Below are positions 31,112-37,444 of a DNA stretch of 40,858 nucleotides, one piece after another (positions within the stretch are counted from its first letter, which is position 1; every line of letters starts with the position of its first letter). Source of the stretch: a virus; UHGV virus genome UHGV-0055581; one strand, given 5' to 3'. The notes under the pieces were generated by a model, which had not been told where the DNA came from, made no database searches, and saw nothing but the letters and a program-made list of their open reading frames with translations. The translations under genes and the position numbers were made by a program.

Positions 31112-32494
31112 TTGGCTACATGGCAACAGGCTGGTAATTCAGGCGCGCTTCTTGCCGGGTTAGGCGGCATGAACTCCAACGCTCCAAGAGCAAGTGATGC
31201 AGACGCCACGCTTGCATACATTCGACAGAATAACGAGATGGAGCGTTCAGGACGTAATAACGTTGGCTTGCAGGCTTTGCAGGGCATTTCATCTGTCATG
31301 GATATGTATAAGCAGATGGATCAGCAGAAGCGACAGCAAGAGTTTCAGCAGGCTTATGCTGATGCATATACATCTGGTGACCGCGATGCAATGCGAAAAC
31401 TGGCATCACAGTATCCTGAGCAGTTTGACGCTGTAAGAAACGGCATGAAATTTGTCGATGAAGACCAGCGTTCCACTGTCGGCACACTGGCAGCAAGTGC
31501 CAGACTGGCAGCTTCATCTCCAGAAGCCATGATGTCATGGTTGCAGAACAACTCATCTGAGCTTACTCGTGCCGGAGTAGACCCTCTGGATGTGGCGAAA
31601 ATGTATCAGCAGAATCCTTCAGGATTTGGTGAGTTTGTTGATCACCTTGGGATGGCTGCTCTTGGTCCGATTGATTACTTCAATGTTCAGGACAAGATGG
31701 CTGTTCGTGAAATTGACCGAGGCAGGCTGGCAGAGACAATCCGCAGCAATCAGGCTGGTGAAGCACTTCAGGCGAGAGGGCAAAACCTTTCCTATCAGTC
31801 AGCAATGACTGGACACGGACTTGCAGCAGAAAGACTGGCACTTGATAAGCAGAAATTCGGTTTTGAAGTACAACAGGCACAAAAGAAGGCCGATGAACTT
31901 ATTAATGCTGCGCCAAAACTATCCGTGAACATGGAAAAGGCTATAGAAAAATCAGCAGGTGATGCGGCAGCTAGTCGTAATGCTGCCGATTCAATGACAA
32001 CGCTTGCTGACACGCTGGAGAAGGAGAAGCCAACTCCTGGTTTGTTCGGTAACGCTGAAAATATGTTCACTAAGCTTACGGGGCAAGATAACTACCTCCG
32101 AGATATGCGGATTAGATTCAACCAACTAGCCAATGCGCAGGCAACCAAGCTTCTCCCTCCCGGCCCTGCATCAGATAAGGATATTGAGTTTGCAAGGAAA
32201 GGCATTCCAAGCGAAACGGATAATCCAATGGTCATGGCTCGATGGTTAAGGGGTATGGCAAAAATGGAAAGTAATAACGCGAAGTTCAACGAGTTTAGGT
32301 CAGAGTGGATGAGTGCAAACGGCAGCCCAGGACAATCTGATCGCAACCGAAACATCATGGGGATGGATGTTAAGAAGGGTGAATCATTGAACTCTGCGGC
32401 AAAACGTTTTCTTTCCTCAAGTTATGGCGATAGCCAACCTCAACAGCAATTGTCCGATGACGAATTAATTAGCAAATATCTCGGAGGGCAGTAA
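31112..32494 (+). CDS. Ejection protein (P22 gp20-like)
   Basis: 460 aa; TTG start with GGAGG RBS 6 nt upstream; conserved order. Confidence 0.7.
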
Positions 32495-34605: not shown

Positions 34606-34977
34606 TTAATCATCCATGGATGGATTGAGCTTATCTCGTGTTGATGTGGCGATTTGTCCTACATTCCTAAGCCAAGATTTCAAATCCTTGATATTGTCAT
34701 TGATTTCATGAATATCTTCTTTTTTTAATCTGTTAATATTATTCTCAATAATTTCAATGGATTGCTCAATATCAGATATAGTGAATGATAGTTTGTTCTT
34801 CTCATCTTTTATTGAGTTTTTAAGTGCTTCGTTCTCAGTCTTGAGGTCAGATATCTTTTGTTTTAAAGATGCCAGTTGGTACTGAACCACAATGAGTGCG
34901 ATAGCTATCACGATAACTGTTGTATACACACCAACCTCCTTAGTTTTGCGCAGGATACCAGATGAAATGGTCTTCAA
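34606..34977 (-). CDS. Membrane-anchored coiled-coil protein, candidate superinfection-exclusion factor (sieA position)
   Basis: 123 aa; N-terminal TM helix (VYTTVIVIAIALIVV) then heptad coiled coil; strongly AT-rich; TTG start overlapping the stop of the upstream Mnt-like gene; no good SD. Confidence 0.5.
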   Translation of the reverse strand: MKTISSGILRKTKEVGVYTTVIVIAIALIVVQYQLASLKQKISDLKTENEALKNSIKDEKNKLSFTISDIEQSIEIIENNINRLKKEDIHEINDNIKDLKSWLRNVGQIATSTRDKLNPSMDD

Positions 34978-35357
34978 AACTGGATGTCTTCAGCATCATC
35001 GCCAAAAACATTTTTATATGCATCTTGCCTTAAGCTCCTGAGAGCTTGATACATTTGCGAATGAGAACTGATGCTATCTAGTAAGTAGAAAATTGCTTTG
35101 ACTAGCTCATTCTCCCACCGCTCAAACTCTTCTTTGTTTGATGGCCTGTTCCCGGAGAGGTTTGAGTAAATCTTCATAATCCTGGAGTTATCAACCTCAG
35201 CAGGCACCGGAGACTTCAATGCATCATCAATGATAAACACTAGTTCTGTATTCATTGATCTGCCGTTTTCCTTTGCTCTTAAGGCTATAGCATCCCGCAT
35301 TCCTGCCGGAAGCCTGATATTGAACCTATCCATTTCATGACTAGGGAACTTGCTCAT
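34974..35357 (-). CDS. Mnt-like ribbon-helix-helix repressor with extended C-terminal domain
   Basis: 127 aa; FNIRLPAGMRDAIALRAKENGRSMNTELVFIIDDALKSPVP resembles P22 Mnt FNFRMPMEVREKLKFRAEANGRSMNSELLQIVQDALSKPSPV (recollection); divergent from arc. Confidence 0.65.
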   Translation of the reverse strand: MSKFPSHEMDRFNIRLPAGMRDAIALRAKENGRSMNTELVFIIDDALKSPVPAEVDNSRIMKIYSNLSGNRPSNKEEFERWENELVKAIFYLLDSISSHSQMYQALRSLRQDAYKNVFGDDAEDIQF

Positions 35358-35413
35358 ATGACCTCAACGTAAAGATGTTCGCTAAACAATAGCACCAACT
35401 TGACATCAAAATA

Positions 35414-35453
35414 AATGATACCAACTTGGTTCTAGAACCAAGTTGGTATCATT
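35414..35453. promoter_or_regulatory. 40-bp perfect palindrome (putative operator) between the divergent mnt-like and arc genes
   Basis: AATGATACCAACTTGGTTCTAGAACCAAGTTGGTATCATT; a third half-site-like copy ACCAACTTG at 35393..35401 overlapping a TTGACA hexamer. Confidence 0.7.
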
Positions 35454-35469
35454 GTGGAGGGGATTACTT

Positions 35470-35643
35470 ATGAAAGATGTGCTTTACACAGGTCGTAAAA
35501 GTCAAAGTTTCCAGCTTCGTTTGCCAGCGCGAATGAAGGAGGAGATTAGACGTGTTGCTGAAATGGATGGAATTTCTATCAACTCTGCGATTGTGCAGCG
35601 ACTGGCTAAAAGCCTGAGAGAGGAAAGAGCTAATGCCCAGTAA
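35470..35643 (+). CDS. arc: Arc-like ribbon-helix-helix repressor
   Basis: 57 aa; FQLRLPARMKEEIRRVAEMDGISINSAIVQRL resembles P22 Arc FNLRWPREVLDLVRKVAEENGRSVNSEIYQRV (recollection); GGAGG RBS. Confidence 0.7.
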   Translation: MKDVLYTGRKSQSFQLRLPARMKEEIRRVAEMDGISINSAIVQRLAKSLREERANAQ

Positions 35644-36343
35644 AAATAGTGAAGCCCAGCAGTGCGCGAACACAAACTGGGCCTCTATGTCAGTAACCGT
35701 ATGCAAGGAAACTAACGTGAATATTGTAGCAAAATCAGATTACAACTTCCACGGAGTTGAGTTGGTGCCCACCCGTGATATGCATGGTGTTTGGTTTACA
35801 TCATCTAATATTGCATCTGCACTTAAATACGCAAATAGTCGTGCAGTAACAATGATTTATAACAAGTATAGCGATGAGTTTAGCGCCGGAATGACTCAGG
35901 TACTCGAAGTGAGTACCTCAGGAAATTATCGCAAAAAAGTGCGAGTTTTCTCACTACGCGGTGCCCACCTAATCGCGATGTTTGCTCGCACTCCGGTAGC
36001 CAAAGAGTTCCGCCGCTGGGTGCTGGATATTTTGGATCGGCAGGCAGAATGCTCACCGATTGCAAAACAGTTTACTGACGAAGAGCTGGTTAATCTCTGC
36101 TACTTACAATTGTGGATGGAGAAGAGTCAACAAATGTGCAAACACATCTACCCAGGAATGAAGCAAATTTGTTCTGAGCTTTCAGGAAGGATTTACGATA
36201 TCGCATATGAGACTCGCTATATGTCAGAAGAAACCAAGAAATCACTTCTTCGTGAAGTGAAGAATCTTGATACCAACAATTTTGTCGTAAAGAACGCTCA
36301 GCCAATGCTGGCAAAACTGCGCGGCGAGGAATGGATTCATTGA
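35633..36343 (+). CDS. ant: Antirepressor with Bro-N-type N-terminal domain
   Basis: 236 aa; N-terminal FHGVELVPTRDMHGVWFTSSNIASALKY...VFSLRGAHLIAMFARTPVAKEFRRWVLDIL resembles the Bro-N domain (recollection); overlaps the arc 3' end as in the P22 arc-ant operon. Confidence 0.65.
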   Translation: MPSKNSEAQQCANTNWASMSVTVCKETNVNIVAKSDYNFHGVELVPTRDMHGVWFTSSNIASALKYANSRAVTMIYNKYSDEFSAGMTQVLEVSTSGNYRKKVRVFSLRGAHLIAMFARTPVAKEFRRWVLDILDRQAECSPIAKQFTDEELVNLCYLQLWMEKSQQMCKHIYPGMKQICSELSGRIYDIAYETRYMSEETKKSLLREVKNLDTNNFVVKNAQPMLAKLRGEEWIH

Positions 36344-36431
36344 TTGGTGCGCCGGACGGCGCAAAAAGAAAACCGCCAGTGTGCTGCTGGCGGCCTATGT
36401 CACACCCTTACTACCACATAAGGAATGCCTA

Positions 36432-37160
36432 ATGACTTTTAAGAATGTAGCAAACATCGGATCCGTTGTCACGGATAAAACCATTGACAGCCAGCGCCTG
36501 CTTGAGATGGTCAATCATGCTCGTAGACAGTGCGGGGAAAAAGAAGTCCGCAATAACGACTTTATTGCACGCATTAAGGATGAACTTGAAGGTGAGCACT
36601 ACGAAATTTTCGTAGTTCAAAAATCAAACAAGACAAGTTCTGAAAAAGTTGTTATGTCAATTAAGCAAGCCCTTCGAGTGGCTGCTCGTGAATCTAAAGC
36701 TGTTCGCCGCTCACTGGTAGACCAACTTGAAAGTATGCAAGAAGCGCACATTAAAAGCGGTAAATCAGCGAGTGGACTTGTTGAGTATCGTCAAGCGCGA
36801 ACATTGAAAATGACGGTTGAAGCTGTTACCAATCTGTTCGATCTGATGCCAAATCTTGCGCCTGAGGCAAAGCAGACAGCGGCAGCAAGTATAATCAACC
36901 CGCTCGTTGGTTTTAATGCAATACCTCTTCCGGCAATAGAAGAGCATTACTACTCAGCAGGGGAGGTTGCAGAGCAGCTTGGAGTAACGGCCAACAAGAT
37001 TGGTCGCATTGCTAACGCAAACAACCTCAAAACTGAGCAGTACGGGAAGTTCTTCCTGGATAAATCGGCGCATTCCAGCAAACAGGTAGAGGCGTTTCGT
37101 TACAATTCTGAAGGCGTTAAAGCACTACAACACCTGCTACATGGCTCAAATGTGGCGTAA
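36432..37160 (+). CDS. Hypothetical protein (242 aa) downstream of ant
   Basis: ATG with AAGGAA RBS; no confident family; upstream in-frame extension to 36381 is possible. Confidence 0.5.
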   Translation: MTFKNVANIGSVVTDKTIDSQRLLEMVNHARRQCGEKEVRNNDFIARIKDELEGEHYEIFVVQKSNKTSSEKVVMSIKQALRVAARESKAVRRSLVDQLESMQEAHIKSGKSASGLVEYRQARTLKMTVEAVTNLFDLMPNLAPEAKQTAAASIINPLVGFNAIPLPAIEEHYYSAGEVAEQLGVTANKIGRIANANNLKTEQYGKFFLDKSAHSSKQVEAFRYNSEGVKALQHLLHGSNVA

Positions 37161-37175
37161 CATTTTATAATGAAA

Positions 37176-37206
37176 ACTAAACCCGCTTAATCGCGGGTTT
37201 TTTCTT
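37176..37206 (+). terminator. Rho-independent terminator (possibly bidirectional)
   Basis: AACCCGC-TTAATC-GCGGGTT hairpin followed by TTTTTCTTT. Confidence 0.7.
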
Positions 37207-37444
37207 TCCTTAGAATTTCAGCCGCAACTTCTTTTACTCGTTCCGAGATTAATGAGGCCAGCCTCTCTTCTTCATCACGATACCCGCTTACAGGTGATGG
37301 TTTGGAGAGTGATTCTTCCATCGTAGCCACAATTTCGGAATTGATAGACCTGTTATTCATTTTTGCACGCTGCTTAATCTTAGCGTGCAACTCGTGTGTA
37401 AGCCTCAAGTGGAACTGCGCCTCATCGTATTTGCTGTACATCAT
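37187..37444 (-). CDS. mnt: Mnt-family repressor (second copy, P22 Mnt-like length)
   Basis: 85 aa; FHLRLTHELHAKIKQRAKMNNRSINSEIVATMEESLSKPSPVSGYRDEEERLA resembles P22 Mnt by recollection; start at the internal Met of the longer ORF. Confidence 0.7.
   Translation of the reverse strand: MMYSKYDEAQFHLRLTHELHAKIKQRAKMNNRSINSEIVATMEESLSKPSPVSGYRDEEERLASLISERVKEVAAEILRKEKTRD

Follow-up and report, generated by a model that had tools for sequence, protein, structure and literature searches.

How does a perfect 40-bp palindrome come to lie between two divergent repressor genes, and what does it do there? The palindrome in question occupies positions 35414–35453 of the virus genome UHGV-0055581, a stretch of 40,858 nucleotides that we refer to as the window. 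To its left lies a gene for a ribbon-helix-helix (RHH) repressor resembling Mnt of phage P22, and to its right a gene for a protein resembling P22 Arc, followed by a putative antirepressor gene, an arrangement recalling the immI control region of P22. The first-pass annotation of this DNA had proposed a composite operator that controls both divergent promoters and is possibly bound cooperatively by both RHH proteins. When relatives are compared, the functional reading turns around: what looked like a larger operator becomes the predicted loss of a promoter. The best explanation overall, to which we assign a probability of about 0.65, is that a template switch perfected an imperfect repeat and overwrote part of the antirepressor promoter of this P22-type control region.

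A repeat search shows the element to be a spacerless perfect inverted repeat, AATGATACCAACTTGGTTCT followed directly by AGAACCAAGTTGGTATCATT, with 20-nt arms (35414–35433 and 35434–35453) that are 100% complementary. It is by far the longest palindrome in the window, where the runners-up have 10-nt arms, and the chance expectation for a spacerless palindrome with arms of 20 nt in random sequence of the window's length is 3.7 × 10^-8. Shorter repeats lie within and beside it, as ACCAACTTG occurs at 35394–35402, where it overlaps a TTGACA hexamer (35400–35405), and again at 35420–35428, and ACCAAGTTG occurs at 35437–35445. The pattern ACCAASTTG has six strand-matches in the 40.9-kb window against 0.73 expected, a number reached in 0 of 100 shuffles, and five of the six fall in the intergenic region between the mnt-like and arc-like genes. 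The sole copy of ACCAACTTG outside the control region, at 36721–36729 in an open reading frame for 259 residues, is probably a chance match. On these points the first-pass annotation stands: the palindrome is perfect, with 20 + 20 nt and 0 nt between the arms; a third half-site does overlap TTGACA, a −35 hexamer conserved as such in the relatives examined; and the flanking genes are divergent mnt-like and arc genes, as Pfam Arc and matches to P22 Mnt and Arc structures in the PDB bear out. The span it gave, 35393–35453, runs too far to the left for the palindrome, which starts at 35414; position 35393 is where the third half-site begins.

The perfect palindrome is a private, derived allele. 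Searches for copies used the exact 40-mer, an N-tolerant pattern or a two-sided dyad pattern, and the perfect form was not found in IMG/VR, in the JGI metagenomes (where the exact 40-mer has 0 copies among the contigs), in one genome per GTDB species or in 5,426 complete E. coli genomes. This operator class is itself present in 19 of the 5,426 E. coli genomes, with a best identity of 93% over 86 nt. In relatives the left arm is imperfect and reads GGTG[T/C]TAAAT, written more fully as ...AAATGGTG[T/C]TAAATTGGTTCTAGAACCAAGTTGGTATCATT, as in E. coli prophages 96–99% identical to the window, in Salmonella phage Oslo (75% identity) and in all 21 IMG/VR contigs returned by the N-tolerant pattern. 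The dyad pattern also matches the reverse strand of ordinary relatives, since one of their dyads (O3, described below) is perfect, and matches were re-scored by strand; ACCAANTTGGTTNTAGNACCAA was then matched on both strands in the window only. Matches of this pattern to genome contigs of Bacteroidia and other unrelated taxa lie outside any immI sequence and look like chance.

Closer relatives narrow the difference to a few bases. Over the 670 bp from 34974 to 35643, the window differs from all 8 close relatives at exactly five positions, all within 8 bp (35418–35425): 35418 G>A, 35420 G>A, 35421 T>C, 35422 T>C and 35425 A>C. We also compared about 80 loci encoding Arc-like relatives, grouped mainly by the DNA-reading strand of the neighboring Mnt-like protein. 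Type N (strand RFN[IV]RLP) comprises 55 loci including the window, and type T (strand RFT[IV]R[ML]P) comprises 23. At the left half of the middle dyad (O2), 54 of 54 type-N relatives read G[C/T/G]TAA, whereas the window reads ACCAA. Because distant outgroups, Salmonella phage Oslo among them, share the imperfect state, we take that state to be ancestral.

The five private changes have a common direction. Each new base complements its partner in the right arm (35449, 35447, 35446, 35445 and 35442, respectively), and the right arm is as in relatives; the chance that five of five random substitutions create complementarity is (1/3)^5 = 0.004, with clustering not counted. The relatives' arms, AATGGTGTTAAATTGGTTCT and AGAACCAAGTTGGTATCATT, are complementary at 15 of 20 positions, and their DNA is predicted to form hairpins of −5.2 to −8.7 kcal/mol, compared with −18.5 kcal/mol for single-stranded DNA of the window. 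In E. coli, template switches at quasipalindromes copy the nascent strand from the other arm and make the repeat perfect (PMC7202029). The window presents the same features, namely a prior imperfect repeat and clustered changes that all raise complementarity to an unchanged arm, so the five-base tract looks like the product of a quasipalindrome template switch, a mechanism that we infer from this sequence signature. Before the event, O2, O3 and their flanks would have been a quasi-palindrome of 40 bp in which 15 of 20 positions could pair. A single template switch during replication in the window lineage would then have copied the right arm into the left, changing five bases within 8 bp and leaving the perfect palindrome. 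The arc and ant open reading frames are still intact, in keeping with a recent event. Even a striking, perfect palindrome may be a recent mutation and not a designed binding site.

The converted tract lies on a promoter. The −35 hexamer TTGACA of the rightward arc–ant promoter, the equivalent of P22 Pant (35400–35405, plus strand), is conserved in the aligned relatives. At the ancestral −10 position (35422–35427, plus strand) relatives read TAAATT with TG at 35419–35420, while the window reads CAACTT with TA, a hexamer that matches TATAAT at 2 of 6 positions and has lost the TG. A −10-like hexamer is kept in 84 of 86 relatives. A promoter scanner, which recovers both annotated P22 promoters (Pant, 302–330; Pmnt, 335–307), finds TTGACA-N16-TAAATT with an upstream TG in a type-N relative (L003; 10/12 plus TG) and TTGACA-16-CATAAT in a relative with a type-T operator (L005; 11/12), and returns 0 promoter-like sites in the window between 35200 and 35800. 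Other −10/−35 pairs near TTGACA or inside the palindrome, such as TTGGTT-16-TATCAT, were looked for by eye on both strands and were unconvincing; the scanner finds none of them.

Because the left-arm bases that give perfect symmetry replace the −10 hexamer and the TG, the promoter is predicted to be weakened, and we infer that in this genome it is severely weakened or dead. In the ancestral module a strong sigma-70 promoter, TTGACA-16 bp-TAAATT with an upstream TG, would have read into arc and ant. The template switch would have turned TG-T-TAAATT into TA-C-CAACTT, removing the −10 and the TG and making O2 a full operator copy. As a consequence, arc and ant would be transcribed, if at all, only via read-through, the antirepressor operon would be silent in the window regardless of repressor, and the leftward mnt promoter would be freed from promoter competition. 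Should the allele be genuine, the prophage is expected to be unable to turn on its antirepressor from that gene's own promoter, and the allele offers a clean natural case of a multi-base quasipalindrome correction rewiring phage regulation.

The comparison of loci also suggests what the repeated elements are. The control region contains three dyads of 5-1-5 layout, whose centers we give relative to the T of TTGACA. In the window O1 (35394–35404), the third half-site of the first-pass annotation, is ACCAA-C-TTGAC, with its right half fused to the −35; O2 (35420–35430) is the perfect dyad ACCAA-C-TTGGT on the −10 position; and O3 (35437–35447) is the perfect dyad ACCAA-G-TTGGT, which has the same layout as the core of the P22 Mnt operator. 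O1 is centered at −1 and reads ACCAA-C-TTGAC in type N and ATCAT-A-TTGAC in type T, and it holds the same position in distinct sequences of both groups (27 of type N, 13 of type T). The left half of O1 is ACC[A/T][A/G] in 55 of 55 loci with the RFN[IV]RLP strand and ATCAT in 23 of 23 with RFT[IV]R[ML]P. The half-sites of O2 and O3 switch with the Mnt-like strand at the same positions. O2, centered at +25 and fused to the −10, is G[C/T]TAA-A-TTGGT in type N and ATCAT-A-ATG[G/A]T in type T. O3 is ACCAA-G-TTG[GT/AC], centered at +42, in type N, where its right half varies among relatives (TTGGT, TTGAC or TAGGT), and ATCA[A/T]-N-[A/G]TGAT, centered at +43 or +44, in type T. In a further two loci, whose strand is KFNLRFP, reading by eye gives GTTAA half-sites in the same layout.

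The Arc-like strand shows no such switch. It is SFQLRLP in 54 of 55 type-N and in 23 of 23 type-T loci, and near-identical Arc proteins stand beside both operator types (L073 and L059, for example); in the E. coli type-T class Arc differs at residues 2 and 7 only. Since the half-sites change with the Mnt-like strand while the Arc-like strand stays constant, we read O1–O3 as putative operators of the Mnt-like repressor. An N-to-T change at one position of the RHH strand goes together with a switch of three sites from ACCAA to ATCAT, a pairing of residues with half-sites that is useful for understanding or engineering RHH specificity. Bound to O1–O3, with O3 about 17 bp past O2, the Mnt-like repressor would occlude the −35, the −10 and the start site, and would keep the antirepressor promoter silent during lysogeny, as P22 Mnt does. 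The inner 16-bp palindrome TTGGTTCTAGAACCAA (35426–35441), made up of the right half of O2 and the left half of O3, covers the predicted transcription start of the ancestral promoter; type-N relatives keep TTGGTTnTAGaACCAA here, and its place right behind the −10 is similar to that of the P22 Mnt operator. O2 is imperfect in type-N relatives because its left half carries the promoter −10. The type-T half-site is compatible with the −10 hexamer CATAAT, so that O2 is nearly perfect there, whereas the type-N half-site is incompatible and O2 is a compromise. The mutation in the window would have settled that compromise for the operator and against the promoter.

Several points weigh against the template-switch account or parts of it. 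The direction of change is argued from parsimony. The perfect −35 and the retained A2 and T6 of the −10 hexamer could leave the promoter some residual activity. The operator status proposed for O1–O3 comes from covariation and position alone; types N and T are two clades, so the covariation reflects few independent switches, and the third class consists of 2 loci. A single 16-bp operator, TTGGT-N6-ACCAA, with extra half-sites in place of 11-bp dyads would also fit, and the right half of O2 and the left half of O3 are the best conserved in type N; however, that spacing varies by class (11, 12 or 13 bp) and the 5-1-5 spacing is constant. Finally, an Arc-like operator was not located when the type-N and type-T intergenic regions, with their near-identical Arc proteins, were compared.

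It is possible that the mutation was not only tolerated but selected. A switch kept as useful would have given the Mnt-like repressor a full site at O2 and silenced the antirepressor promoter, leaving a prophage hard-wired against induction driven by Ant. Perfect 11-bp dyads number two in the window and at most one in relatives, and the arc and ant open reading frames of the window are intact. In P22, overproduction of Ant readily selects for promoter-down mutations in Pant, which we also count in favor of selection. We nevertheless consider it unlikely, as the allele is known from a single genome, a neutral or recent event fits equally well, and the intact arc-like gene provides no evident pressure of the kind exerted by P22 arc-minus mutants. 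More tentatively than the template switch itself, we propose a wider scheme, in which the whole clade uses a three-operator Mnt layout with swapped specificity (R-x-N-x-R with ACCAA, R-x-T-x-R with ATCAT and possibly K-x-N-x-R with GTTAA), and in which the template switch completed O2, silenced the antirepressor promoter and was perhaps kept for lysogeny; taken in all its parts, this scheme remains speculative.

A further point against the template switch would be an error of sequencing, assembly or construction, with a miscalled left arm and a true genome still in the ancestral quasi-palindromic GGTGTTAAAT state. The allele is unique among all collections searched, and the change is confined to a palindromic context in which strand mix-ups are conceivable. 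An artefact is distinctly improbable, though, for five coordinated substitutions with no indel or ambiguity and with unique flanks on both sides make an atypical error pattern, and the same pattern is a documented in vivo outcome at quasipalindromes (PMC7202029).

The composite operator proposed initially has fared worse still, and we regard it as very unlikely. A palindrome evolved as a native site for cooperative binding of the Arc-like and Mnt-like proteins would suit a control region that lies between both genes and contains repeated dyads, one of them on the −35 hexamer; the corresponding interval of P22 is where Mnt and Arc both act. No relative has the perfect symmetry, however, not even those nearly identical to the window whose repressor proteins are the same, so that the 40-bp unit to which the first-pass annotation assigned the function is private to the window and missing from all 54 type-N relatives. 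The dyad sequence follows the Mnt-like and not the Arc-like strand, which leaves cooperative binding by both RHH proteins without support. As for control of both divergent promoters, the rightward one loses its −10, and promoter prediction, which had been suggested as a check, finds none between 35200 and 35800; the element more likely disabled one promoter than governs two. What survives of the proposal is the operator region as such, in that the repeated ACCAA-N-TTGGT elements behave like operators across loci, but not the 40-bp perfection as a composite operator.

A role in RNA, as an intrinsic terminator of leftward transcription or as a hairpin affecting the processing or stability of late read-through mRNA, is barely credible, since the minus-strand hairpin and following T-rich tail TATTTTGATG (35404–35413) flagged by a terminator scan have an AT-rich stem (6 of 18 pairs GC) and no T-run after the stem on the plus strand, no leftward gene ends upstream (that side holds the arc start, on the other strand), and relatives are without a strong hairpin, with no such site flagged in L003. 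The GC-rich stem and the transcription-unit end of a Rho-independent terminator are missing, and the terminator-like score is probably a by-product of the mutation.

For leftward transcription, the extended −10 element TGCTATTGT (35386–35394, minus strand), read from the sequence, is a candidate mnt promoter. The complement of its TGCTA, namely TAGCA, shows conservation of 90% or more in type N and type T alike, even as the half-site beside it changes; the two-hexamer scanner did not detect a promoter at 35386–35394. With regard to the Arc-like protein, the intergenic comparison of types N and T gave no convincing 21-bp dyad like P22 Oarc. Outside the promoter elements, both types have in common just AATGR (+14 from TTGACA; 35414–35418 in the window) and A[A/T]TGG (+25; 35425–35429). 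These form a direct repeat one helical turn apart, possibly an Arc-like binding site, and the second copy has become CTTGG in the window. The TCTAGA at the center of the palindrome was considered as overlapping TAGA boxes of the P22 Arc kind and rejected, as the boxes are wrongly spaced and type-T loci with the same Arc lack the motif.

The flanking genes place the element in a familiar module. The Mnt-like RHH repressor gene (34974–35357, minus strand; 127 residues) encodes a protein with a Pfam Arc match (1.1e-16) and with P22 Mnt as its top PDB match (1mnt, 2.3e-8), in which RFNIRLP aligns with HFNFRMP; its predicted DNA-reading strand is R11-F-N13-I-R15-L-P. The Arc-like RHH gene (35470–35643, plus strand; 57 residues, strand S-F-Q-L-R-L-P) has a Pfam Arc match of 8.3e-12 and matches Arc structures in the PDB (pArc, 7.6e-10; P22 Arc 1arq, 1.8e-5), and a Shine-Dalgarno sequence, GGAGGGG (35456–35462, plus strand), can be read 7 nt before its ATG at 35470. 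Next, in the same operon, comes the putative antirepressor gene (35717–36343, plus strand), with Bro-N and P22AR C-terminal domains and a GTG start taken from the annotation of relatives; the open reading frame at 35633–36343 has Pfam matches to P22_AR_C (1.5e-12) and Bro-N (2.2e-10), and RefSeq annotates relatives L002–L006 alike. An 18-nt direct repeat of 78% identity pairs AAAGATGTTCGCTAAACA in the mnt leader (35371–35388) with AAAGATGTGCTTTACACA at the start of the arc coding sequence (35473–35490), and this may be chance.

Upstream of the module, the open reading frame at 32494–34605 matches the gene-16-type genes for DNA transfer or ejection proteins of epsilon34, CUS-3 and HK620. Downstream, from 37575, there is what we take to be the N-terminus of a tailspike-type protein, and the remainder of the window is similar to HK620-like and HK022-like lambdoid phages. 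P22-like phages have a variable region, called the 'ant moron' or immI, with the gene-16-type DNA transfer gene on one side and the tailspike gene on the other (PMC2629481, PMC8022706). With divergent mnt- and arc-type RHH genes, an antirepressor-type gene after arc and this location, the locus is, by its gene content, the immI-type 'ant moron' of a P22-like E. coli prophage. A strong sigma-70 Pant reading into arc and ant is predicted in relatives and not in the window; because only the −35 of Pant remains, the window holds a damaged copy of the module.

Several further observations concern exchange within this module. A mosaic junction falls at about 35245–35255, around residue 36 of the mnt-like gene and just past the start of the RHH domain, and the same DNA-reading N-terminus is joined in relatives to at least three unrelated C-terminal domains (L003/L004, L073, L060 and others), in proteins of 127, 106 and about 120 residues, among other lengths. 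A second exchange occurs exactly at the arc start codon (35470 in the window): in L005, L006 and at least 24 E. coli genomes, arc is 95% identical in loci of the L005/L006 type while the intergenic region and mnt-like gene are swapped for the type-T version with CATCAT dyads. The 83-residue type-T mnt-like gene is labeled a 'truncated pseudogene' in RefSeq, yet it is an intact open reading frame of P22 Mnt length.

Other neighbors can be described briefly. A second Mnt-like RHH gene (37187–37443, minus strand; about 84 residues) has a Pfam Arc match of 4.9e-14 on a longer open reading frame, a C-terminal part like that of P22 Mnt (SKPSPVSGYRDEEERLA...) and an orientation divergent from the tailspike gene (start 37575, plus strand); the prophage therefore carries two mnt-type repressors. 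The 217-residue open reading frame around this gene probably extends too far, running antisense into the tailspike gene, and no obvious palindrome was seen upstream of the Mnt-like gene in the intergenic region up to 37575. Between ant and the second mnt-like gene, a 259-residue open reading frame (36381–37160, plus strand) gave no Pfam match. Adjoining the first mnt-like gene is a 123-residue open reading frame (34606–34977, minus strand) that matches, at the DNA level, hkcB-type hypothetical genes of epsilon34, CUS-3 and HK620; its Pfam matches are weak, under curated cut-offs, and all to coiled-coil-type families.

Among known systems, the closest relatives in sequence are immI modules of E. 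coli prophages, for example those of strains MDR_56 and 55989, and of Salmonella phage vB_SosS_Oslo. They have an identical or near-identical Mnt-like RHH domain and Arc-like protein, and an intergenic region that is the same save for the five bases; they keep GGTG[T/C]TAAAT, TG-TAAATT and the quasi-palindrome only. In their records the genes are annotated simply as 'Arc family DNA-binding protein', with no operators. The mutational model of Ripley, known from the E. coli thyA hotspot and lacZ quasipalindrome reporters, shares with the window a prior imperfect repeat, a clustered multi-base change and an unchanged donor arm. Those cases come from selection experiments, whereas here comparison points to a natural prophage regulatory allele.

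The system that best describes the locus as a whole is P22 immI. Both have a divergent mnt-type gene and arc–ant pair, with both RHH proteins of the Arc/Mnt family, between gene-16-type and tailspike genes, and in P22 and this clade alike the rightward promoter has a TTGACA −35 at the matching place and a dyad directly downstream of the −10. The operators are Omnt, of 17 bp, and Oarc, of 21 bp, in P22, where Mnt represses the antirepressor promoter during lysogeny. The P22 Mnt operator has the core TCCAC-G-GTGGA, which shares the 5-1-5 geometry of ACCAA-G-TTGGT but is unrelated to it in sequence. Where P22 has one recognised Omnt, this clade seems to possess three Mnt-type dyads, at the −35, at the −10 and farther downstream, and, unlike in P22, no 21-bp dyad resembling an Arc operator is evident between the −35 and the −10. 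The Mnt-like protein has a different and longer C-terminal domain than P22 Mnt, and the candidate mnt promoter is back-to-back with Pant, whereas the P22 annotation has the two fully overlapping. What sets the window itself apart from P22 is the missing −10 of Pant. These differences do not depart from the known logic of P22 immI: the element is a homologue of the P22 immI control region and would work in the same way, and the event that altered it is of a well-known mutational kind.

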